A stretch of 32,000 nucleotides of DNA from Copranaerobaculum intestinale (GCF_009831105.1 NZ_WUUQ01000002.1:150001-182000), one strand, 5' to 3'. Shown: positions 5,762 to 31,566, counted from the first letter of the stretch. Program-made: numbers and translations. The notes: a model not told the origin generated them from the letters alone.

Positions 5762-6039
5762 AATCATCCTCCTATTTTCATGTCTACTTACATTATAATC
5801 CTTTCATGCGGAAGCGAAAGTCCTTTCTTGGAAAAAGGATGCCTTTTTGCACATTATGAGGAGGTTCTTTTGATTTTTTATGATAGTTTCCCGATTTGAA
5901 AGAAAATTCTAATAACACAAAACCCTTATTTATCATTATATCATCTATAAAAAGGTACCCAACCTACTATAAAAACACCCATAAACACGGTTGCAAAATT
6001 GTATAATGAAAGCGTATTCAGAAAATTCTCTGAAATTTG

Positions 6040-6119: not shown

Positions 6120-7388
6120 ATGAGTAACGACAACGTAGTATTAGGAAGAAATACCGAAAACGCTCCAAAGTGTCCATATAGTTCACAGACAGTAGCATTT
6201 TCACACTACAACAACCTTTCTGCACAATTACCGATTGATCCGAAGACCGGCAATCTGGTAGCTGGCGGAATTAAAGAACAGGCAGAGCAGTGTTTACATA
6301 ATATCAAAGCTATCGTGGAAAGCATTGACCACGTCATGAGCGATGTTATCCGGATCACCGTATTTGTAAAAAACATCAAACATGTTGACGCCGTTGATGA
6401 AGTATACAAAACATTCTTTACGACATACCTGCCGGCGCGTACAACCGTAGCGGTAGCGGATCTGCCAATGGGTGCCATGGTTCAGGTAGAAGCATTGATC
6501 TCCTGCGGCGAGGGAACAATTCCGAATGCGCCTCAGTCCGGCGATCTGATCAAACTGACAAACAATACCGCAAATGCACCGCTGAGCGCTTTATCTACTC
6601 AGACGGTAGCGTTCTCACACTATAACAACCTGACGGCACAGCTGCCTATTTCACCAAAAACCGGCAGAGTGGTAGCGGGTGGCATCAAGGAACAGACGAT
6701 CCAGTGCTTAAGCAACATTAAAGCAATCCTGGAAAGCATCGATGTACCTTTTGATGATATTGTGAAAACAACAATTTACGTAAAAGACCTTGCGGATATG
6801 GATAAGGTAAACGAAGTTTATACAACGTTCCACCCGGATTCAGCAATCGCAAGAGCGGTCGGCTATATGCCTGCTCGTACTGTCGTTGAAGCTGCTGATC
6901 TGCCGATGGGCGCTTTGATTCAGATTGAAGTAGTTGTATCTCATGGCGATGGCACTCCTCCACAGCTGGTGGAAGACAGACATGGTCTGATTATCGAAGC
7001 AAACAATACGGAACATGCACCGGTATGCAAATATGCTTCTCAGACAGTGGCTTTCTCACACTACAACAACATTTCAGGACAGTTTCCGATCGATGCGGAA
7101 ACTGGTAAAATTGTTGCGGGCGGAGTGAAAGAACAAACGGTTCAGTGCCTAAACAACATCAAAACGATTATTGAAAGTGTTGATCACGTAATCGAAGATG
7201 TCGTAAAGGTGAATATCTATCTTAAAAACCTTTCCGATATGGATGCTATGAATGAGGCTTATTCGACTTTCTTTCCAGATGGAGTACCGGCAAGAAGAAT
7301 CGTTGGTGTTTCCAACCTAGCGCATGATGCATTGGTTGAAATCGAAGCAATCGTAGGAAATGCGGAAGGTACACCTCCGGTAAAATAA
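6120..7388 (+). CDS. Three tandem RidA/YjgF/YER057c/UK114 domains fused in one polypeptide
   Basis: SQTVAFSHYNN(L/I)(S/T)(A/G)Q(L/F)PI...TG..VAGG(I/V)KEQ..QCL.NIK.I.ES(I/V)D occurs three times, with the Q codons at 6186, 6600 and 7041. Each module ends in PAR...(V/I)E and a G(E/D)GT(I/P)P linker. Confidence 0.85.
   Translation: MSNDNVVLGRNTENAPKCPYSSQTVAFSHYNNLSAQLPIDPKTGNLVAGGIKEQAEQCLHNIKAIVESIDHVMSDVIRITVFVKNIKHVDAVDEVYKTFFTTYLPARTTVAVADLPMGAMVQVEALISCGEGTIPNAPQSGDLIKLTNNTANAPLSALSTQTVAFSHYNNLTAQLPISPKTGRVVAGGIKEQTIQCLSNIKAILESIDVPFDDIVKTTIYVKDLADMDKVNEVYTTFHPDSAIARAVGYMPARTVVEAADLPMGALIQIEVVVSHGDGTPPQLVEDRHGLIIEANNTEHAPVCKYASQTVAFSHYNNISGQFPIDAETGKIVAGGVKEQTVQCLNNIKTIIESVDHVIEDVVKVNIYLKNLSDMDAMNEAYSTFFPDGVPARRIVGVSNLAHDALVEIEAIVGNAEGTPPVK
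6141..7358 (+). repeat. Diverged intragenic triplication (RidA modules at about 6141-6509, 6546-6947 and 6984-7358)
   Basis: Offsets between equivalent codons are 414 nt and 441 nt. By hand alignment, roughly half the residues are identical between modules 1 and 3. The DNA copies are clearly diverged, so this is not a recent duplication. Confidence 0.8.
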
Positions 7389-21674: not shown

Positions 21675-22562
21675 TTAATGAACAGATGCTTTGTAAATTT
21701 CAAGGATAGCCTGTTTCAGTGCGTTATCAAATTCTTCCTGGGTTTGCTGAGCAGACAAATCTGATAAGAGTGCTCGGGAGAAGCTTGCAATCAAACCCTG
21801 ATTCTTCATCAGAAGATCATCGGCCTCTTTGCGGGTATATCCGCCGGATAATGCGACAACCCGTACGACATGGGGATCATCAATGATTGGTGCGTATAAG
21901 TTTGTTTCGGTTGGAATCGTCAACTTAAACATGAGCAACACATCGTCATCCAATTTCACAAGATGCTCCTGAATTTCCTTCAGCAACAATGCTTCTGCTG
22001 CTTTTTTGGTGCTGCTATTGATGGATACCTCCGGCTCCAGAATCGGAACCAAACCGGCTTTTACAATCTGTAAGCCTATTTCAAATTGCTGATCGACAAT
22101 CTTTTTAATACCTATCGGGTTTGCTTCCTTGATGACACTACGCATTTTTGTACCGAAGATGTGCTTTTCATTTGCGGTTTTCAACAGTGCTTCTAAGTCC
22201 GGCATCGGCTTCATGAGCTGAACATCATCGGCTTCGTCAGCCAAGCCTTTATCCACCTTCAGGAAAGGTACGATTCCTTTCTTCTCCCACAGATAGTCTG
22301 CCGTGTCCATACCTTCCACCTTCGAATTCATGGTTCGCTCAAAGAGAATTGCCCCCAGTATATGCTGTGCGGTGAAAGCACAGCTGGTGATGATACGGCT
22401 GCGCATCTGATGAATGAGATCAAACATCTCTTCATCATTATGAAAGGCTGTTTCCTCGATACCATAAGCTTTCAAAGCTTTTGGGGTACTGCCGCCGCTT
22501 TGATCTAGCGCTGCGATGAAACCGGGATCCTTGCGCATGCGTTCAAATTGTTTTGTGTTCAT
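21675..22562 (-). CDS. fda: Class I fructose-1,6-bisphosphate aldolase
   Basis: 295 aa. GFIAALDQSGGSTPKAL, GAILFE.TM, VPFLKVDKGL, IFGTKMRS and VVRVVALSGGY closely follow the staphylococcal-type class I Fda, as I recall that sequence. Confidence 0.85.
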   Translation of the reverse strand: MNTKQFERMRKDPGFIAALDQSGGSTPKALKAYGIEETAFHNDEEMFDLIHQMRSRIITSCAFTAQHILGAILFERTMNSKVEGMDTADYLWEKKGIVPFLKVDKGLADEADDVQLMKPMPDLEALLKTANEKHIFGTKMRSVIKEANPIGIKKIVDQQFEIGLQIVKAGLVPILEPEVSINSSTKKAAEALLLKEIQEHLVKLDDDVLLMFKLTIPTETNLYAPIIDDPHVVRVVALSGGYTRKEADDLLMKNQGLIASFSRALLSDLSAQQTQEEFDNALKQAILEIYKASVH

Positions 22563-22778
22563 GTATGAGCACCTCCTTTACTTGTATTATATACCCGGAC
22601 TTACATAGTTACGAGTGAAATGTTCAGGGAATGGAAACCGTAAATGAAAAGCTGCCTGCTATGTAAAATAGTTGATGTAAATTGAATAAAATCGGTTCAT
22701 GAATTGGATGCTTTCGATAATGGAAGGAACTGTAAAATTATGTTTTTAAAATTCATGGTAAGATACCTTCAACAGAGA

Positions 22779-22795
22779 TTTCGACACTGTCGAAA
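22779..22795. promoter_or_regulatory. Perfect 17-bp palindrome (candidate operator)
   Basis: TTTCGACA-c-TGTCGAAA, with 8-bp arms, lies in the 378-nt fda/regulator divergent intergenic region. Confidence 0.4.
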
Positions 22796-22940
22796 ATTAA
22801 AAAAAAGATTATATGCAGTGTCTGAAATTTATGATAAGAGGCAGTGAGTGTTGAAACATTTCAAAAGTGTCCGTTTTTTGCATACGCTTTTCTATAATGT
22901 AGTCATCCAAAATACTGCCTCGGATCAGGAGGAAATGTTT

Positions 22941-25661
22941 ATGAATGTCATCAGCACAAAAAAACTGCTGCTTCAGTTTCTGGAGCGAGATGTGGAATTC
23001 AGTATCGAGAGTCCGTATCGCTGTACGACAAGTGATATCAGTGAGACCATGCACATCAGCCGTTCTTTAACGAGTCAGTATCTGAATGAACTGAACAAGG
23101 AAGGAAAGCTAGTGAAAGTAACTTCCCGTCCCGTATATTATTTCAGTACCAAACGGTTAGAGGAATTATATTCCGCAACCGTTGGTGAATTTGAATTTTA
23201 TGATATGGAAGAATTGCATGGTTATTTACAAAAAGGGAAAAACAGCGTTCAAGATTTTCAAAAAGTCATCGGAAATGAAGGAACCCTCAGCTATTGTACG
23301 ATGCAGATGAAGTCTGCAATGCTATATCCGCCCGATGGACTGCCGATTATTTTTCATGGCAGGAAGGGAAGCGGCAAGGCTTATCTGGCGGAAGTCATGT
23401 ATGAATATGGTGTCAACCAAAGAATATTGTCATCACATGCTCATTTTGTAAAAGATCATATTGCTTCAATTCATGAACCGTATGAAGAAGTACTGTTTGG
23501 AACGAGCCATGCGGATCGAATCGTTCCCGGCTTACTTGAAAAAGCTGCCGGAGGACTGCTTTATCTTGGGGACGCGGGAAATATGAATATGGAATGTCAG
23601 CGGCGGCTTACCGCTTATATTACCAAGGGTACCTTTACCAGGATCTATGATGATAAAACGATATTGAATGTAAAGACGCGAATCGTGTTAGGGGTAGAGC
23701 ATGATCTGCATGAACAGCTGTATGATGAACTGCTGCTGAACATACCCGTCGTCTGTGAGATACCTGCGTTGTCGATGCGCCCTCAGGGTGAGCGAAATGA
23801 TATGATCGTCTCATTTCTGATCAAAGAAGCGCAGTCCTTGAAAAAGGAAATTCTGCTGTCAAAATCGCTGTATCAAGTATTCATGGGATATCATTTCCAT
23901 GACAGTATCGATGATATGAACACCAATCTGCGGCTTGCGTGTGCCAATGCCTATGCACAGAGCGGAAATGAAGAAGAAATTCATATGTATCTTCGGCATT
24001 TGCCGATGGAGGTGTTCGGTGACCTGGAATTATCGCTTCGCGGTCGTGACAGCGAAGAACTGCTGGGCGTGGATGAGTTGAAGATGCAGGATGGAAAGCG
24101 TCAGATTCTTCAGTTGTATGAACAGATTCTGGAAGCTCATCAGATGTACCTGGAGCGCACCTTTGATGAACCGGAATGGGTGAATTCAGGATTAAATGCG
24201 ATGCGCTGTTATTATGATTTTATCGTTTTTGAACAGCGTGATGATGACTTGGGAAGAAAGACGATCGCCGCAAAGCTGGAAGAGCTAATATCAGAGGTTG
24301 AGAAACAATTTCAAATTACCCTGCCCTTGAATTGCAGCTTTATTTTAGCAAGGATGGTGTATGCGATCTATCGGATGCAGTCGGAAGTGCAGCTTTGGGA
24401 ACATCAGCACAAGGATGCAATTCACAGCTGTCAGGAAACGCTGGATAAACAACTGCCGGATGTCAGTGCGATGGCTGCTTCGATCATTCGCAAAATTAAC
24501 GGCGCCATGGATGTGAAGCTGGGGACGATGAACACGATCTTTTTGATCTTCAATATTCATTTCTATAACCGGGATGTCATTAACCGTGATACCTGCGGGG
24601 TGATTATCTCACATGGTTATTCCACGGCCACAAGTATTGCCGATGCAGTCAATCAAATGCTGGAAATGCAGGTTTTCAAAGCGATTGACATGCCCTTGGA
24701 TACCGATGTGAAGCAAATCCAGAAAAAGCTGGTCCGCTTTGTGGAACTGCATCCGAATTATCGAAATTTGATCATCATGGTTGATATGGGATCATTGGAG
24801 GAAATTGCCTCCGGTCTGCAAGCCGATATGAATATCGGTGTCATCAACAACATATCAACCGGCCTGGCCCTGGATATCGGAAATCGGATTCAGCGCCATC
24901 AGGAATTGGAGGATATTCTCCAGAATGCATGCCGCGGGTTTGAATGTCATTATCAAATTTTATCCAAGAGCGGTAAAGAAAAAGCAATCGTCTTTACCAA
25001 TGATGTAGGAATGAAGGTTTCTTCAAAGCTGGTGGAGCTGTTCAAGAGCAGTCTTCCGAAAATCATTAATCTGAAGTTTATCGAATACGATTATGACCGC
25101 CTTCAGAAGATGGGAATCCAGGATGTGCTGTTTGATAAATATGAAGTCATTTTGTTGATCAAGCCCCACATGCTGAAGCTGGACGGCATTCAGAGCTTGT
25201 CTTTGGAAGAACTGATCAGCTTTAAATCCATTGCGCAGGTGAATCAAATACTCTCGCAGTACTTGAATGACGCTGAGATTGAAAGCTTTAATAAACAGCT
25301 GCTGAAGAATTTTTCATTGCAGAGCATCATGGAGAATCTAACGATTCTCAATCCCGGCAAACTGCTTGATCAGGTATCAGAAGCGATCACTCAGCTTCAG
25401 CTGTTGATGGATCGCAAGTTTCAAAGCAAAACCATTATCGGCATCTACATGCATACCTGTTTTCTAATTGAGCGGCTGGTTACCAAAACCGCAATTCTTT
25501 CAGATGATATGGATGCTTTTGAAAAAGCACATCCGGATTTTATCCGCAATGTCCATATCAGTTTTGAGAAAATGCTGAAAAATTACAGTGTCGAGATACC
25601 GATCAGTGAGATATCTTATTTATACGACTACATCCAGAACGAAGAATGGGAGGAGAAATAA
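22941..25661 (+). CDS. LevR-architecture PTS regulator (HTH, degenerate AAA+, PRD, EIIA-Man-like, EIIB-Gat-like, PRD)
   Basis: The domain order is readable by eye:
- Winged HTH (ISETMHISRSLTSQYLNEL).
- AAA+-like block (IIFHGRKGSGKAYLAE...GGLLYLGDAG).
- PRD.
- EIIA-Man-like VIISHGYSTATS.
- Second PRD (IGIYMHTCFLIERL).
Start is set at the ATG at 22941, 8 nt after AGGAGG. The ORF track GTG at 22848 adds 31 aa with no RBS. Confidence 0.75.
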   Translation: MNVISTKKLLLQFLERDVEFSIESPYRCTTSDISETMHISRSLTSQYLNELNKEGKLVKVTSRPVYYFSTKRLEELYSATVGEFEFYDMEELHGYLQKGKNSVQDFQKVIGNEGTLSYCTMQMKSAMLYPPDGLPIIFHGRKGSGKAYLAEVMYEYGVNQRILSSHAHFVKDHIASIHEPYEEVLFGTSHADRIVPGLLEKAAGGLLYLGDAGNMNMECQRRLTAYITKGTFTRIYDDKTILNVKTRIVLGVEHDLHEQLYDELLLNIPVVCEIPALSMRPQGERNDMIVSFLIKEAQSLKKEILLSKSLYQVFMGYHFHDSIDDMNTNLRLACANAYAQSGNEEEIHMYLRHLPMEVFGDLELSLRGRDSEELLGVDELKMQDGKRQILQLYEQILEAHQMYLERTFDEPEWVNSGLNAMRCYYDFIVFEQRDDDLGRKTIAAKLEELISEVEKQFQITLPLNCSFILARMVYAIYRMQSEVQLWEHQHKDAIHSCQETLDKQLPDVSAMAASIIRKINGAMDVKLGTMNTIFLIFNIHFYNRDVINRDTCGVIISHGYSTATSIADAVNQMLEMQVFKAIDMPLDTDVKQIQKKLVRFVELHPNYRNLIIMVDMGSLEEIASGLQADMNIGVINNISTGLALDIGNRIQRHQELEDILQNACRGFECHYQILSKSGKEKAIVFTNDVGMKVSSKLVELFKSSLPKIINLKFIEYDYDRLQKMGIQDVLFDKYEVILLIKPHMLKLDGIQSLSLEELISFKSIAQVNQILSQYLNDAEIESFNKQLLKNFSLQSIMENLTILNPGKLLDQVSEAITQLQLLMDRKFQSKTIIGIYMHTCFLIERLVTKTAILSDDMDAFEKAHPDFIRNVHISFEKMLKNYSVEIPISEISYLYDYIQNEEWEEK

Positions 25662-26050
25662 TGCGAAGAATTATTCTGGCATCACATGGTGAAATGGCCA
25701 AGGGGATGAAAAACACATTGGAGATGATAGTTGGCAAGGATGAGCGGATACAGCTGCTGATGTTAATGCCGGGGCATCATCCGGACGAACTGAAACAGCA
25801 GGTAGAAAGGTGGGCAGCTGAGAATCCCGAGGATGAATTTATCATTCTGTGTGATCTGTTTGGCGGCAGTGTCGCAAATGCGCTCATGCATCTGTGTACC
25901 TGTGAAAAAATCCATGTGGTCACCGGGGCAAATTTAGGAATGGCCATTACGATTTGTACCGCAAAAGATGAAGAACCGCTTGCCCAGCTGATTCGCAATT
26001 CTTTGAGCGAAGCAAAAAAGTATATGCTTTATACCAATGATCTCATGTAA
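25661..26050 (+). CDS. PTS mannose/fructose/sorbose-family EIIA
   Basis: RIILASHGEMAKG carries the phospho-His. Length is about 129 aa. The ATG overlaps the regulator stop (TAATG). Confidence 0.85.
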   Translation: MRRIILASHGEMAKGMKNTLEMIVGKDERIQLLMLMPGHHPDELKQQVERWAAENPEDEFIILCDLFGGSVANALMHLCTCEKIHVVTGANLGMAITICTAKDEEPLAQLIRNSLSEAKKYMLYTNDLM

Positions 26051-26067: not shown

Positions 26068-26589
26068 ATGATCAAAATGTTGAGAATTGATGATCGTCTG
26101 CTGCATGGTCAGGTTGTCTTTATCTGGTCAAAACAGTTGGATATCAAGGGAATTGTCGTCGCCAACGATGCTTTACCCGATGATCCGATCCAATCTATGG
26201 CAATGAAAATGGTCGTACCGGAGCACATCAAGCTGCTGATCAAGAAGGTTGATGATGCGGTGCATTTCCTGAATGATCCCCGGATTGAGGGGATGGGCGT
26301 TATGGTGGTCGTAAAAGATCCTGAAGATGCCGCAAGGGTCATGAAAGGCTTGCACAATCCAAATGTTGTTCAAAAGCTGAATATCGGCAACAGCGGTCGG
26401 GTCGATAAAGGGGACCGCCAAAAGCTGACGCCCGAAGTATATGTCGATCAAACGGATATAGCGGCATTGAAAGAACTGCTTCAATATCAAATTCCTTTTG
26501 AGATCCAGATGATTCCGACCAATGGAAAAACGGATGTAAAGGATGCGTTAAGCCATTATCATGAAGCAGATACAGAAAAATCCTCATAA
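26068..26589 (+). CDS. PTS mannose/fructose/sorbose-family EIIB
   Basis: The N-terminal LRIDDRLLHGQVV is the signature phospho-His motif of EIIB-Man/Sor. Confidence 0.88.
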   Translation: MIKMLRIDDRLLHGQVVFIWSKQLDIKGIVVANDALPDDPIQSMAMKMVVPEHIKLLIKKVDDAVHFLNDPRIEGMGVMVVVKDPEDAARVMKGLHNPNVVQKLNIGNSGRVDKGDRQKLTPEVYVDQTDIAALKELLQYQIPFEIQMIPTNGKTDVKDALSHYHEADTEKSS

Positions 26590-26697
26590 AGAGGAGGAAA
26601 GCATCAGGCAAGATGGATTTCTTAAAAGTACATGATCTTTCATAAGAAACAGCAGAGCATGTATGAAAATTAGGGAAAAGAAAGAGGAGGTTACGTT

Positions 26698-27486
26698 ATG
26701 GAATTATATCAGGCTTTACTGATTGCGCTAACGGCCGCAATCGCACAATTTACATTCAACACGATGGGATTGATGCTGAATCGTCCATTGGTTTTGGCTC
26801 CTATTGTAGGACTTATCCTAGGCGATCTGCATCAGGGTATTATCATGGGTGCTGCCTTGGAATTGATTTTTCTGGGCGTTGTTTCGATTGGCGGATCAAC
26901 TCCGTCCGATGCCAACATGGGTTCGGTATTGGGGACGGCCTTTGCCATCAGCATGAGCAAAGGGGTTCAAGTCGCCTTGGCATTATCCGTTCCGATCGGT
27001 ATTCTGATGCAGATGATCACCTATTTAATTTATTTCTTCCGTTCCACAACGATGGACCGCGTTGAAGTGTATGCAGAGCGCGGCGAATTTAATAAAATCA
27101 CAATGCTTCATTTCGGACATCAGTTATTAGAAGTAGCTATCTATGGAATTTTGGCATTTTGTTCCCTGCAGTTTGGGGCTGGGGCAATGAAAAATTTGGT
27201 TGATTCCATCCCGGAGATCGTTATGACCGGATTGGATGTCGCATCACAAATGCTGCCGGCAGTCGGATTTGCATTGCTTATGAATATGCTTTGGAATAAA
27301 CAGCTCTGCATCTTTGTATTCTTTGGGTTCATCCTGGCTACCTATTTGGAACTGCCGATTATCGCCATTGCCGGGATCGCACTTACGATCGGCATCGTTA
27401 TGATTTTGACTGATATGAATATGAAGAGTACAAAAGCTGTTAATCAAGCACCGGTAAGTGCTGAGGAGGACTTCTTCAATGAATAA
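26698..27486 (+). CDS. PTS mannose/fructose/sorbose-family EIIC
   Basis: 262 aa polytopic membrane protein in the canonical position. GAALELIFLG and GGSTPSD are typical of EIIC-Man. GAGGAGG RBS. Confidence 0.8.
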   Translation: MELYQALLIALTAAIAQFTFNTMGLMLNRPLVLAPIVGLILGDLHQGIIMGAALELIFLGVVSIGGSTPSDANMGSVLGTAFAISMSKGVQVALALSVPIGILMQMITYLIYFFRSTTMDRVEVYAERGEFNKITMLHFGHQLLEVAIYGILAFCSLQFGAGAMKNLVDSIPEIVMTGLDVASQMLPAVGFALLMNMLWNKQLCIFVFFGFILATYLELPIIAIAGIALTIGIVMILTDMNMKSTKAVNQAPVSAEEDFFNE

Positions 27487-28294
27487 AATGAGTTTGAGTA
27501 CAGATGAAAAAAAGCTGACCCGTACCCTCTTCTTGCGTTCTTTCATGCTGGAGGCTTCCTTCAACTTTGAAAAAATGCAGGCGTTGGGATTTGCCTGGGC
27601 GATGTTCCCGGTCATTAAAAAATTCTATCCAACCAAGGAGGAGCAGGTAGAAGCGCTAAAACGTCATACGGCTTTCTTCAATATTACGCCTTATATCGTG
27701 ACATTCTTACTAGGATTATCCGCATCGATGGAAAAAGAATATGCGGAAAATAAAAGCATTGATCCATCCATGATCAATGCCGTCAAGGTATCGCTGATGG
27801 GGCCGTTGTCCGGAATTGGTGATTCCTTCTTCTGGGGTACCTTCCGCGTAATCGCCGCCGGTGTCGGTATTTCATTATCCCAGCAGGGAAATATTTTGGG
27901 ACCGATCTTATTTCTATTGATCTTTAATGTTCCGCATTTATTGATTCGTTATTATTGTTCAGTGCTTGGTTATTCACTGGGTTCTAAATTTATCCAGAGC
28001 TCCTATGAGAACGGATTGATATCTCATATGACAAAGCTGGCAACGGTGATCGGTCTTACTACGGTCGGTGCTATGATTTCTACGATGGTTGTTTTCCAGG
28101 TCGGTTTTACGACGAAAATCGGCAGTATGAAATTTGTATTACAGGATATTTTTGATCAAATCGTACCGAATATTCTGCCATTGTCTTTGACCTTCTTCGT
28201 ATTCTGGCTGATCCGTAAAGGGGTTAAAGTAAATTATATCATCATCGGTGTATTTGCTTTTGGACTGCTTGGAACCTTAGTCGGTATTTTATAA
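27479..28294 (+). CDS. PTS mannose/fructose/sorbose-family EIID
   Basis: LTRTLFLRSFMLEASFNFEKMQALGF matches the conserved EIID N-terminus. The ATG at 27479 lies 8 nt after GAGGAGGA and overlaps EIIC by 8 nt. Confidence 0.85.
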   Translation: MNKMSLSTDEKKLTRTLFLRSFMLEASFNFEKMQALGFAWAMFPVIKKFYPTKEEQVEALKRHTAFFNITPYIVTFLLGLSASMEKEYAENKSIDPSMINAVKVSLMGPLSGIGDSFFWGTFRVIAAGVGISLSQQGNILGPILFLLIFNVPHLLIRYYCSVLGYSLGSKFIQSSYENGLISHMTKLATVIGLTTVGAMISTMVVFQVGFTTKIGSMKFVLQDIFDQIVPNILPLSLTFFVFWLIRKGVKVNYIIIGVFAFGLLGTLVGIL

Positions 28295-28346
28295 ATGCTT
28301 CCTCTCCGCAAGGAGAGGATGTATTATGATAGGAAGGAGGAATTTT

Positions 28347-29570
28347 ATGCAAATCATAAAGAGTCATGCAATTTATACGGAATCCGGCATTGTAGACGGT
28401 TATCTTGTTTTAAAGGATAAGCAAATTGATCGAATCTTAGACAAACGCGGTGAGCTTCCTGAAGGTTCGATCATTGATTATGGCTATCACCGTATTTTGC
28501 CGGGCATCATTGATTTGCACACGCATGGGTACCGATCCTTTGCGGCGCGAACCCTGCACTTTGAGGAATGCTTAGGATTTGCCCGGGTAATGCCCTCGAT
28601 CGGGGTAACGAGTTTTCTGCCGACAGTATGCGGGTGGAAGGAACATCAGATAGAAATGATCGAAGCAGTATCCAATGCGATCGCAGTACAAAAGCAGGGA
28701 GCGCGCATGCTGGGTATTCATATGGAAGGCCCGTATTTTCATCCCAGCCGACATAACGCGACACCTCTAACTGAGCTGAAAGAACCAAGTATCAAAGAAT
28801 TTGAGGATTGTCTGAACGCTTCTAAGGGATATCTGCGCTATGTAACCTTGGCTCCGGAACTGCCGCACGCACAGAAAGTTATAAAATGGTTGGATGAACA
28901 CCATATCATAGCCGGAGGCGGTCATACGACAGCGGATTATGAACAGTTTTCAGATGCAAAAGCAAATGGTATGAGGGTAAGCATCCATACCGGTAATGCG
29001 ATGAATCAGATGGATCGCCGTGAGATTGGACTTTTGGGCGGTGCGTTGGCTGATCCGGACATGTATTGTGAGATCAACTGTGATCTGGTTCATCTTTCCA
29101 AAGAAATGCTGGAAATCATGTTCCGGATTAAACAGAATTATGAACGATTTATTATGATTTCCGATTCGGATACGGTCAGCGGGATCGAGCCCGGCTATTA
29201 TCTGGTCGGCAATCAGCGAACCAGGGTTACAAAGGACGGCCGCATGCTGCTGGATGACGGGACGATTGCCGGAAGCTGCCGTAATATTTTATACGGGATC
29301 AGAAATCTGGCTGAAGAATTCCATATCCCATTGACGGATATTTTGAAAATGAGTTCGCTGAACGCGGCACGGCTGCTTAAAATCGATGATCATAAGGGTT
29401 CAATTTTGGAGGGAAAGGATGCTGATTTGGTAATCGTTGATGAAGCGTATGACGTCCTTGAAACCTATGTAGAAGGACAATCTGTTTATCAAGCGAATGA
29501 TGAATTGCCATCGAATCCGCGTTTTTGTGAAGAAGTGCCGATAATTTTTGAAAAGGAGGGTGCTATATGA
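28347..29570 (+). CDS. NagA-like amidohydrolase (N-acetylhexosamine-6-phosphate deacetylase family), paralog 1
   Basis: PGIIDLHTHG (HxH), LGIHMEGPYF, APE, GGGHTTA, HTGNAM, MISDS and G.ILEGKDADLVIVD follow the COG1820 pattern. Start at 28347 follows GAAGGAGG. The ORF track start is 28326. Confidence 0.7.
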   Translation: MQIIKSHAIYTESGIVDGYLVLKDKQIDRILDKRGELPEGSIIDYGYHRILPGIIDLHTHGYRSFAARTLHFEECLGFARVMPSIGVTSFLPTVCGWKEHQIEMIEAVSNAIAVQKQGARMLGIHMEGPYFHPSRHNATPLTELKEPSIKEFEDCLNASKGYLRYVTLAPELPHAQKVIKWLDEHHIIAGGGHTTADYEQFSDAKANGMRVSIHTGNAMNQMDRREIGLLGGALADPDMYCEINCDLVHLSKEMLEIMFRIKQNYERFIMISDSDTVSGIEPGYYLVGNQRTRVTKDGRMLLDDGTIAGSCRNILYGIRNLAEEFHIPLTDILKMSSLNAARLLKIDDHKGSILEGKDADLVIVDEAYDVLETYVEGQSVYQANDELPSNPRFCEEVPIIFEKEGAI

Positions 29571-30727
29571 TTATTCAGAGTGATGCAATTTACACAGAAA
29601 AAGGAAAATACAGCGGTTATATGGAAATTGAAAACGGACATTTTATCCGCTTTTTCGATAAACTACCCAAGCAGGAAGCAGTACTCGACTATCGTGGTTG
29701 CTTGATCCTGCCCGGCTTTATCGATATTCATACACATGGCTATGACGGTCATCATGCGCAGGCGGTGGATAAGCAGGAGCTGATCGCTTTAAAAAAATCT
29801 ATGACGAAGGCGGGTGTTACTGGCTTCTTGCCAACTGCCGGGGCTCATTTTGAACAGGAGTATGATAATCTGAAACAGCTGGCAGATTGTATTGAAGAAC
29901 AGGATTTTGATCATCCAATCGGTGCTCAAATGTTGGGGATACACATGGAAGGCCCTTTTTTGAATCCTGAACGCAGAGGTGCATTTCAACCGTATCAGCT
30001 GCTGCCGGCAGATATTCAAAAGGCATCTGCATATTTGGAAGCAAGCCGCCATCATATCGTTTATATGGCATTGGCACCGGAACTGGATCCTGACGGTAAA
30101 CTGATTCAATACCTGAAGGAACAGGGTGTAAAGACGGCCGGTGCTCATACGACTGCATCGTATGAAGAATATGAGCGTGGGATTCAGCAGGGTTTGTCAG
30201 CATCGACTCATACAGGAAACGGCATGTGTCAGATTGACCGCAGAAATGTCGGAGCACTTGGCGCTGCACTGTTAAATGATGATCTTTATTGTGAGGCGAT
30301 CTGTGATTTTCACCATGTTGACCCAAGGATGCTGGATATTATGTTTCGGGTAAAAAAGGATGGATGCCGCAAATTTATCATGATTTCCGATTCCACAGAA
30401 GTATCCGGTCTGCCAAAAGGAACCTATACTTCTGATGGCATGCAGGTAACCATTCAGGATAATGGGTTGATCCTGGATGAGGAGGGGACGATCATGGGCA
30501 GTGCTCATGATGTACTGTACGGTTTCCAGAACCTGAAAAATAAGATGAAACTGCCGATTGAAGATATTCTGATGATGACGTCACTAAATCCTGCTTCTTT
30601 ATTGGGAATAGCGGATCATAAAGGCAGTATTCTGGAAAATAAGGATGCGGATTTTATCATTCTGAATCAGAAGGATGAATTGCTGGCGACCTACGTACAG
30701 GGAAACTGTGTTTATCAAAAAGCATAG
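29567..30727 (+). CDS. NagA-like amidohydrolase, paralog 2
   Basis: The same motif series is present: PGFIDIHTHG, LGIHMEGPFL, APE, AGAHTTA, HTGNGM, MISDS and GSILENKDADFIILN. There is an ATGA start/stop overlap with paralog 1. Confidence 0.7.
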   Translation: MIIQSDAIYTEKGKYSGYMEIENGHFIRFFDKLPKQEAVLDYRGCLILPGFIDIHTHGYDGHHAQAVDKQELIALKKSMTKAGVTGFLPTAGAHFEQEYDNLKQLADCIEEQDFDHPIGAQMLGIHMEGPFLNPERRGAFQPYQLLPADIQKASAYLEASRHHIVYMALAPELDPDGKLIQYLKEQGVKTAGAHTTASYEEYERGIQQGLSASTHTGNGMCQIDRRNVGALGAALLNDDLYCEAICDFHHVDPRMLDIMFRVKKDGCRKFIMISDSTEVSGLPKGTYTSDGMQVTIQDNGLILDEEGTIMGSAHDVLYGFQNLKNKMKLPIEDILMMTSLNPASLLGIADHKGSILENKDADFIILNQKDELLATYVQGNCVYQKA

Positions 30728-30881: not shown

Positions 30882-30895
30882 TGTAAACGATTACA
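30882..30895. promoter_or_regulatory. cre-like (CcpA-type) operator
   Basis: TGTAAACGATTACA fits TGWAANCGNTNWCA at every specified position. It lies inside a larger palindrome ATATGTAA-acga-TTACATAT, between the candidate -10 and the RBS. Confidence 0.5.
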
Positions 30896-30915: not shown

Positions 30916-31566
30916 ATGAAATATGTTTGTACAATATGCGGTTACATATACGATGAAGCCGCAGGCGCCTTAGAAAGCAGAATACCGCCTAATACCCCTT
31001 GGGATGCTCTGCCTTCCGATTGGGTCTGTCCGATTTGCGGCGCACCGAAAGATGTATTTGAAAAAGCGGAAGAGGAAGCACCTGCGGCAGTTAAGGATGA
31101 ACCTTTGACATCTTTTGATGCATCGTGGAATCAGTTGGCATTGAGTGCTTTGTGTTCCAATCTGGCAAAAGGCTGTGAAAAACAGTATCTTGCTGAAGAA
31201 GCAGCTTTATACAACCAGCTGGCTGCTTATTTTGAGACGAAAGCAGTGCCAAAGGAAGGCAATGTACAGGATCTTTTAAATCAGGTCGAACAGGATTTAA
31301 AGGAACTTTATCCGGCTGCTAAACAAGCTGCGGATGACGCCTATGATCGAGGGGCAAAGCGTATTCTGGTATGGAGTGAAAAAGTAAAACGGATCCAAGA
31401 ATCATTATTGAAACGATATGAAACAGAACAGCAAAATCTGATTAAGGATACCAAAGTGTATGTTTGTGAAATCTGCGGTTTTATTTATGTTGGAGATACA
31501 CCGCCTGAGGTATGTCCTGTCTGTAAAGTTCCCAGCTTTAAGCTGGTAGAAGTGGAAAGGGGTTGA
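30916..31566 (+). CDS. Rubredoxin / helical domain / rubrerythrin-type C-terminal rubredoxin-like fusion protein
   Basis: N-terminal [10 protein letters not shown]...[11 protein letters not shown] is a canonical rubredoxin. C-terminal CEICGFIY...CPVCKVP resembles a rubrerythrin C-terminal FeS4 domain. The intervening ~130 aa is helical and contains no His or ExxH. Confidence 0.7.

Follow-up and report, generated by a model that had tools for sequence, protein, structure and literature searches.

LevR of Bacillus subtilis and the LevR-like bacterial enhancer-binding proteins (bEBPs) CelR, MptR and ManR of Listeria and Enterococcus are built in the order helix-turn-helix (HTH) domain, AAA+ domain, PRD, EIIA-Man domain, EIIB-like domain and PRD, and the same order is found in the regulator considered here. 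In LevR-like proteins, phosphate transferred from HPr to the EIIA-like histidine activates, and phosphate from EIIB on the PRD2 histidine inhibits (PMC11976118). The GAFTGA motif, the Walker B DE pair and the arginine finger were each reported as essential for sigma-54 activation (PMC3162934). The idea of a sigma-54-independent regulator derived from a bEBP is not new, since TyrR, DhaR, HupR, VpsR and YplP are well-documented homologs in which GAFTGA is defective and which operate with sigma-70 (PMC3162934); no LevR-type, PRD-containing example was found in the searchable literature. The present locus lies in a 32,000-nt stretch of the Copranaerobaculum intestinale (Erysipelotrichaceae) genome (GCF_009831105.1, NZ_WUUQ01000002.1:150001-182000), hereafter the window, in which positions 22941-25661 of the plus strand encode a LevR-type regulator of 906 amino acids (aa). 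A first-pass annotation of the window proposed that this protein has lost its sigma-54 contact and ATPase motifs and acts without sigma-54, still under phosphotransferase system (PTS) control and autoregulated with its operon. The results below support this proposal: the regulator is very probably LevR-derived and sigma-54-independent, and within its family the loss of GAFTGA tracks the loss of the -24/-12 promoter.

The AAA+ domain and its relatives

The LevR order (N-terminal HTH, AAA+, EIIA-Man-like and C-terminal PRD) was recognised in the regulator from Pfam matches and AlphaFold secondary structure, and the following domains were delimited:
aa 1-100: winged HTH
aa 119-375: degenerate AAA+ domain
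aa 385-543: helical PRD1-like region
aa 546-680: EIIA-Man-like domain
aa 681-800: EIIB-like domain
aa 815-900: PRD2

The best NCBIfam match, the LevR-like model DagR (NF047795), covered residues 60-930 as a full-length match, with 313 bits against an equivalog cutoff of 1400. The name DagR was rejected; the literature under it led only to an unrelated, retracted paper on a Streptomyces LacI-family protein.

The hand alignment of the AAA+ core in the first-pass annotation was checked by phmmer alignment to the NtrC1 structures 1ny6, 4ly6 and 1ny5 and was reproduced, neither GAFTGA nor DE being recovered. The motifs are located as follows:
23358-23378, plus strand: Walker A (P-loop) GRKGSGK, retained (translation, alignments)
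23490-23516, plus strand: L1-loop stump VLFGTSHAD, with GAFTGA deleted (family alignments)
23550-23579, plus strand: degenerate Walker B GGLLYLGDAG (NtrC1 counterpart GGTLFLDEIG)
23679-23735, plus strand: degenerate sensor I and lost arginine finger (alignments to NtrC1 and the family)

Both Walker motifs had been placed exactly. The replacement of the GAFTGA loop by VLFGTSHAD also stood, with its start, given as 23493, corrected by one codon: NtrC1 ELFGYEKGAFTGA pairs with VLFGTSH-----AD, so that GAFTG falls in a gap of five residues, and not of about four as first estimated. The pattern G[AS][FYW][TS]G[AS] had no match anywhere in the regulator. The catalytic DE of Walker B is replaced by GD, and sensor I reads RIVLGVEHD, with GVE where ATT or ATN is expected. 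NtrC1 FREDLYYRL pairs with -YDELLLNI, which puts Tyr in place of the arginine finger and Asn in place of the second Arg; the YDELL that had been reported for this region was found at 23721-23735. The RR of the LevR-type LLRRIP is LN in the window regulator. Among GAFTGA, Walker B DE, arginine finger and P-loop, the P-loop alone survives.

The domain scored 51 bits with PF00158 (Sigma54_activat), whose gathering cutoff is 20.2; among relatives, intact proteins scored 130-133 bits, intermediate ones 54-81 and Collinsella 25, and the most degenerate had no match. In the AlphaFold model (mean predicted local distance difference test score 83, rising to about 90 over the AAA+ domain), the bEBP AAA+ fold is preserved, and no more than a short hairpin (aa 187-196) occupies the L1 position. 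According to Foldseek, the template modelling score reached 0.72-0.79 against the bEBP AAA+ domains of NtrC1, FlrC, PspF and NtrX, and the best matches were NtrX (top, itself GAFTGA-less), NtrC1, LuxO, ZraR, PspF and VpsR. The ratio of nonsynonymous to synonymous change (dN/dS) relative to the 86% identical ortholog was 0.058 overall and 0.073 in the AAA+ core, values that are approximate because dS is saturated (>1). Amino-acid change (dN) in the AAA+ core was 2.5-4 times faster than in the EIIA-like and PRD2 domains. Judged by these ratios, the degenerate AAA+ domain is under purifying selection.

Related loci are denoted by L-numbers; L001 carries the 86% identical regulator, P0002. All 30 homologs obtained by a word-indexed protein search (86% to <20% identity) were without GAFTGA and Walker B DE, and the losses were common to about 68 of the 80 relatives aligned. 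The motif losses described in the first-pass annotation are thus real but not private to one gene: they are family-wide. At least 587 relatives were collected by a scan of one genome per species with the HTH pattern SQYLN; 80 loci were kept, and 50 of these were analysed. Twelve of the 50 regulators have GAFTGA, GAYTGA or GSFTGA together with the Walker B DE and the Arg-Arg pair, and the other 38, besides the window regulator and that of L001, are GAFTGA-less. A subset of the GAFTGA-less proteins (Hungatella and Enterocloster types, L032) keeps DE, and most of this subset also keeps RR; others retain RR alone; most, the window regulator included, retain the P-loop alone; and in eight the P-loop is lost as well. 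The Hungatella group, with Walker B DE and Arg-Arg, may represent an ATP-hydrolysing intermediate.

A HMMER search of 1.84 billion cluster representatives gave 644 LevR-like clusters at E<=1e-30; among the best 143 full-length ones (50% identity clusters), 108 were GAFTGA-less, so that at least 108 such clusters exist. Their hosts include Erysipelotrichaceae, Clostridium, Lachnospiraceae, Oscillospiraceae, Collinsella and Olsenella. The members in Collinsella and Olsenella fit sigma-54 independence, since Actinobacteria were reported to lack sigma-54 (PMC3162934). Both kinds of regulator were found in one genome in Dielma fastidiosa (L010 and L037) and in one Thermoanaerobacterales metagenome-assembled genome (MAG), and several Anaerorhabdus MAGs, taken together, carry both. 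Because the two kinds coexist in one genome, the GAFTGA-less form is not simply a by-product of rpoN loss.

Promoter type and operator sites

The -24/-12 element was sought as TGGCAC-N5-TTGCW, with the GG and GC dinucleotides required and mismatches counted. With up to two mismatches, none was present in 22563-22940 or 26590-26697, which confirms the first-pass result for these two intervals, nor elsewhere near the operon; with up to one mismatch, none was present anywhere in the window, where the total number of matches was not above, and indeed was below, shuffle expectation. The same scan was applied to the equivalent regions by the related regulators. An element with 0-2 mismatches lies 30-105 nt 3' of the regulator stop in 11/11 GAFTGA-bearing loci having downstream sequence, and in 0/34 non-redundant GAFTGA-less loci (Fisher p ~1e-10, computed without phylogenetic correction). 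The gap between regulator and PTS genes is 85-155 nt in the GAFTGA-bearing loci; in the GAFTGA-less loci, the regulator usually heads a closely packed operon and overlaps the next gene or is separated from it by up to about 35 nt.

In six Erysipelotrichaceae loci, rpoN adjoins the GAFTGA-bearing regulator gene divergently:
L028 4580-5866, minus strand: rpoN
L030 4577-5842, minus strand: rpoN
L034 4702-5898, minus strand: rpoN
L036 4611-5819, minus strand: rpoN
L037 4655-5905, minus strand: rpoN
L043 92-1354, minus strand: rpoN

There, the sigma factor (rpoN), the activator (the GAFTGA-bearing LevR-like gene) and the target (the PTS operon) stand together as a compact module. No open reading frame (ORF) with an RpoN box was detected in any GAFTGA-less locus or in the window. 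With the Dielma RpoN as query, Copranaerobaculum did not occur among the 120 matches listed, and other Erysipelotrichaceae RpoNs (30-34% identity) were equally outside that list.

When the window was aligned with L001, L082, L083 and L084, several copies of an AGTGTYGAA-like box and a conserved TATAAT came to light upstream of the regulator:
22768-22775, beside the distal operator: further half-site TTCAACAG
22779-22795, strand unassigned: distal predicted operator, inverted repeat TTTCGACAcTGTCGAAA, conserved in L001
22817-22827, plus strand: middle predicted operator AGTGTCTGAAA, kept in L001 and L082; L083 and L084 have related copies
22847-22864, plus strand: proximal predicted operator AGTGTTGAAAC, holding the partial palindrome TTGAAAcATTTCAA
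22893-22898, plus strand: predicted -10 box for sigma-A, TATAAT, unchanged in L001 and L082
22927-22932, plus strand: regulator ribosome-binding site AGGAGG (from sequence), kept in L001

The minus-strand reading of the distal operator is AGTGTCGA, and its plus-strand reading is cTGTCGAA. The three sites are phased 30 bp apart, and the GTGT of the proximal one begins 45 nt 5' of the -10 box; the corresponding box in L083 and L084 is TATAAT or TAAGAT. At the -35 position is TCCGTT (22870-22875), a poor match, as expected of an activator-dependent promoter, and the transcript is predicted to start near 22905. A two-hexamer promoter scan of the upstream region gave no plus-strand promoter because the -35 is missing. 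A minus-strand promoter-like match (22837-22808) was rejected, being not conserved in L001, and so was a terminator-like call at 22779-22795: the sequence is that of the palindromic operator, and a T-run is lacking. The longest regulator ORF opens at GTG 22848; the true start is probably ATG 22941, favoured by the AGGAGG and by the gene call of P0002 on L001.

Within 360 nt spanning the starts of the GAFTGA-less regulator genes, 36 copies of the motif AGTGTYGA were counted, in 25/34 loci, a 73-fold enrichment over the rest of the same loci (Poisson p ~1e-53); none lay upstream of GAFTGA-bearing regulator genes. The latter loci have two direct copies, 21 bp apart, situated 70-127 bp upstream of the -24, which is the classical enhancer position and falls within the 3' end of the regulator coding sequence. 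A proximal GTGTY stands exactly 45 nt 5' of a TATAAT-like hexamer in 9/34 GAFTGA-less loci, compared with at most three loci at any spacing in 200 shuffles; a second spacing peak at 75 nt corresponds to the next motif copy.

Several further observations concern the motif. The enhancer pairs (AGTGTCRA x2) lie at about 8643-8671 in L025, about 8652-8680 in L037, 8763-8791 in L034 and about 8673-8701 in L036, and these intragenic copies translate as Ser-Val codons. In L034 and L036, the pair is located in a non-homologous C-terminal extension (KASVK...NSVN), so the DNA site may shape the protein tail and not the reverse. Two AGTGTYGA copies 12-13 nt apart were observed in L011, L012, L014, L019 and L022 (Hungatella and Lachnospiraceae types) and in L051, L052 and L073 (Collinsella and Olsenella), a geometry that differs from the 30-nt phasing of the window's clade. 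A copy of AGTGTCGA also occurs at 25587-25594, inside the 3' end of the window regulator (YSVE codons), 75 nt before the stop, and likewise in L082; it may be left over from an ancestral enhancer, or its presence in the coding sequence may be chance. An internal promoter 3' of this copy was rejected, with no -10 at the family spacing and no -24/-12 after it. A further block shared with L001, at 22609-22627 (GTTACGAGTGAAATGTTCA), is close to the promoter of the divergent aldolase and has a partial likeness to the proximal operator (AACATTTCA).

Operon layout, mechanism and alternatives

The genes around the regulator are arranged as follows:
21675-22562, minus strand: class I fructose-bisphosphate aldolase, divergent from the regulator
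22941-25661, plus strand: LevR-type regulator, 906 aa (Pfam, NCBIfam, AlphaFold, Foldseek; PDB 3gx1 for the EIIA-like domain)
25661-26050, plus strand: mannose-family EIIA (Pfam/NCBIfam), its ATG overlapping the regulator stop (TAATG)
26068-26589, plus strand: sorbose/mannose-family EIIB (Pfam/NCBIfam)
26698-27486, plus strand: mannose-family EIIC (Pfam/NCBIfam)
27458-28294, plus strand: mannose-family EIID (Pfam/NCBIfam)
28326-29570 and 29567-30727, plus strand: two tandem NagA-type amino-sugar-6-phosphate deacetylases (TIGR00221, 260 and 252 bits, above cutoff)

The region between the aldolase and the regulator measures 378 bp (22563-22940). The overlap of regulator stop and EIIA start claimed in the first-pass annotation was borne out, the last A of the TAA (25659-25661) being the first base of the EIIA ATG (25661-25663); the EIIA ribosome-binding site GGGAGGAG is just 5' of that ATG. 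Ortholog regulators overlap or abut EIIA in L001, L082 and L083, and are separated from it by 18 nt in L084. Mannose-family EIIA, EIIB, EIIC and EIID genes directly follow the regulator in the window and in about 45 related loci. The two NagA-type paralogs, the final genes of the operon, are 43% identical to each other and are also kept in L001 and L084; the pair suggests that the substrate is an N-acetylated amino sugar, possibly with two acetyl groups. The operon contains no gene for a deaminase or an isomerase. With the regulator fused to the front of the PTS operon and a motif 45 nt from TATAAT, the proposed autoregulation is supported.

The continuing control by the PTS that had been proposed is supported by two conserved histidines. 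These and the conserved DNA-binding part are positioned as follows:
23058-23144, plus strand: DNA-recognition part of the HTH, SRSLTSQYLNEL...SRPVYYF, the most conserved stretch of the family
24612-24614, plus strand: His558 in SHGYSTA of the EIIA-Man-like domain, predicted activating phosphorylation site for HPr
25452-25454, plus strand: His838 in YMHTCFLIERL of PRD2, predicted inhibitory phosphorylation site for the PTS EIIB

Residues R41, S45, L48, L51, K59, R63, P64 and V65 of the HTH were invariant in alignment A1, as were both histidines. In the 80-sequence alignment, His558 was conserved in 76/80 sequences and His838 in all complete ones; His558 aligns with the HG of Lin1832 in 3gx1. 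The HTH recognition region, His558 and His838 are kept across relatives down to <30% identity. The roles of the two histidines are predicted by analogy with LevR (PMC11976118).

The best mechanism, in which we place somewhat more than even confidence, is that of a sigma-A activator that is under PTS control, stimulates its own expression and carries a dead ATPase; sequence comparisons lead us to infer that sigma-A is used, that the regulation is activating, how phosphorylation governs it and what the AAA+ domain does. The winged HTH would bind the three 30-bp-phased AGTGTYGAA-type sites (22779-22864) just upstream of the sigma-A promoter, and the bound regulator would activate this promoter, which has a perfect -10 (TATAAT, 22893-98) and no usable -35. 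The location of the sites upstream of a promoter without a -35 suggests activation by contact with sigma-A RNA polymerase. The regulator gene, EIIA, EIIB, EIIC, EIID and the two NagA-like deacetylases would be transcribed as a single operon, and the regulation would thus be positive autoregulation. Phosphorylation of His558 in the EIIA-Man-like domain by HPr~P would lead to activation, and phosphorylation of His838 in PRD2 by the operon's EIIB~P would lead to inhibition when substrate transport is absent. The AAA+ domain would still fold and be maintained by selection, its role probably being oligomerisation and perhaps also nucleotide binding via the P-loop, and it would be unable to hydrolyse ATP or contact sigma-54.

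Certain points weigh against this interpretation. The GAFTGA-bearing proteins form one clade in a simple neighbour-joining tree, and the association of 11 versus 0 loci may for this reason reflect few independent events; the dN/dS values share the saturation noted above. The 45-nt spacing holds in nine of the 34 loci, not in all, and the proximal site of L003-L005 may reach across the -35, an arrangement that a repressor would explain as well. Finally, the placing of the transcript start, the choice of sigma-A and the positive direction of regulation are deductions.

The first-pass annotation had allowed for either an activator or a repressor, and the site positions favour the former without proving it. 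A sigma-54-independent repressor, or a TyrR-like dual regulator, is an unlikely but serious alternative, according to which the protein bound to AGTGTYGAA would hold the sigma-A promoter off, by oligomerising or looping, until PTS dephosphorylation. A higher-order repressing complex could form on three phased sites, a second half-site appears to overlap the -35 in L003-L005, and TyrR, a GAFTGA-less bEBP homolog, mainly represses (PMC3162934). In the window, however, every site lies 5' of the -35 position, and none covers the -10 or the transcribed leader; promoters that depend on an activator typically lack a -35 hexamer, as this one does, the fixed distance of 45 nt to the -10 fits contact with RNA polymerase, and the characterised LevR-like proteins are all activators (PMC11976118).

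That the protein still activates sigma-54, through a non-canonical contact and a divergent or distant -24/-12 missed by the scans, is very improbable, even though the domain passes the Pfam gathering cutoff and keeps its P-loop. This explanation has to contend with the loss of three elements reported as essential (PMC3162934) and with the absence of GG-N10-GC (up to two mismatches) near the operon and in the matching regions beside the regulator in 34 related loci, set against its presence in 11/11 GAFTGA-bearing ones; the P-loop itself is gone in some family members, and members are present in Actinobacteria. A decaying, non-functional LevR remnant, with the operon constitutive or under another regulator, is hardly credible, for although several catalytic motifs are lost and dN in the AAA+ core is raised, the frame is intact over 906 codons, dN/dS is low both overall and in the core, the HTH and both histidines are kept in distant relatives, cognate operator sites are conserved upstream, and at least 108 GAFTGA-less clusters persist.

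The window regulator, by the preferred reading a sigma-A activator, is a member of a large set of regulators from gut bacteria that has apparently gone undescribed and whose members seem to activate an ordinary promoter ahead of their own operon. Since GAFTGA-less proteins score above the Pfam Sigma54_activat threshold, they risk being labelled as sigma-54-interacting, and surveys of sigma-54 regulons filter them out (PMC3162934, PMC6615313, PMC12316311); passing Pfam yet excluded from surveys, the group is possibly mislabelled in genomes and unstudied in the literature. More tentatively, the GAFTGA-less LevR-type proteins might constitute a large overlooked class of regulators in gut anaerobes in which an enhancer-binding ATPase was turned wholesale into a promoter-proximal sigma-A activator, the operator having moved from the enhancer position to the -50 region, the regulator having been fused to its operon and the AAA+ domain being kept under selection as a PTS-gated oligomerisation scaffold, with the P-loop perhaps a nucleotide sensor. 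Such a class would span at least 108 clusters from Erysipelotrichaceae, Clostridia, Lachnospiraceae and Coriobacteriia. Binding of cyclic di-GMP or ATP occurs in FleQ, VpsR and TyrR, which offer a model for nucleotide sensing by the P-loop.

If the interpretation is true, the family provides a clean natural experiment on the switch of a transcription factor from one RNA polymerase partner to another: the part that binds DNA, the operator and the inputs from the PTS would have remained constant, while the sigma contact, ATPase and promoter type were swapped, and intermediates with GAFTGA lost and the Walker B and Arg pair kept are extant. The family also bears on the prediction of sugar-utilisation regulons in gut Firmicutes and Collinsella, and supplies a compact model of what a catalytically dead AAA+ domain (pseudo-ATPase) gives a transcription factor.

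The surroundings of the locus in the window are those of an ordinary Firmicute chromosome (priA, rsmB, rlmN, a PASTA kinase, rsgA, rpe and thiamine pyrophosphokinase), and six proteins encoded in the window are identical to those of C. intestinale strain DONG20-135. The EIIB-EIIC spacer (26590-26697, 108 nt) is bounded by a duplicated AGAGGAGG ribosome-binding sequence and is missing from the 86% ortholog locus L001 (gap 2 nt), and on these grounds looks like a small insertion; it was rejected as a promoter site, having no -24/-12 element and no counterpart in the ortholog. A perfect palindromic catabolite-responsive element (cre, the CcpA site), TGTAAACGATTACA, was noted at 30882-30895, just 5' of a rubredoxin/rubrerythrin-like gene (30916-31566), and a one-mismatch cre at 6007-6020, 5' of the gene 6120-7388, whose 422-aa product has three RidA/Rid-family domains in tandem (TIGR00004 matches three stretches). 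No cre sites were found in the regulator upstream region.

Comparison with known systems

The closest described systems fall into three groups. LevR and the LevR-like bEBPs share with the window regulator the mannose-family PTS partner and the conserved EIIA-like and PRD2 histidines (PMC11976118), and the GAFTGA-bearing relatives within its own family share the DNA motif AGTGTYGA with the GAFTGA-less ones. Unlike LevR, the window regulator has no GAFTGA, Walker B DE, arginine finger or -24/-12 promoter; it is the first gene of its operon and is not placed upstream of an enhancer-dependent promoter, and its predicted sites abut the -10 box in place of lying 70-127 bp upstream of the -24.

The second group comprises TyrR, DhaR, VpsR, NtrX, HupR and the NtrC of Rhodobacter and Caulobacter, which likewise have a bEBP AAA+ domain with a defective or missing GAFTGA; these proteins act at sigma-70-type promoters (PMC3162934). 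NtrX (the top match) and VpsR are among the structural matches of the window regulator, and DhaR, like it, controls a PTS-linked operon. These proteins differ in having other sensory domains and no PRD or EIIA modules. Moreover, most sigma-54-independent homologs described in PMC3162934 keep the Walker B DE, whereas in the window regulator the ATPase motifs are lost too.

The third group, PRD activators of the MtlR, LicR and ManR type (including CelR of Streptococcus pneumoniae and S. mutans), are phosphorylated by the PTS and bind upstream of sigma-A PTS promoters, as proposed here (PMC3478281). S. pneumoniae CelR, called LevR-like in one paper and from a host thought to lack sigma-54, was considered as a precedent and rejected, since it is of the MtlR/LicR type without an AAA+ domain (PMC3478281). 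Proteins of this type have no AAA+ domain, their DNA-binding module consists of an HTH and a Mga-like part, and their order is PRD-PRD-EIIB-EIIA with mannitol/galactitol-type domains; over the N-terminal half, they and the window regulator are not homologous.

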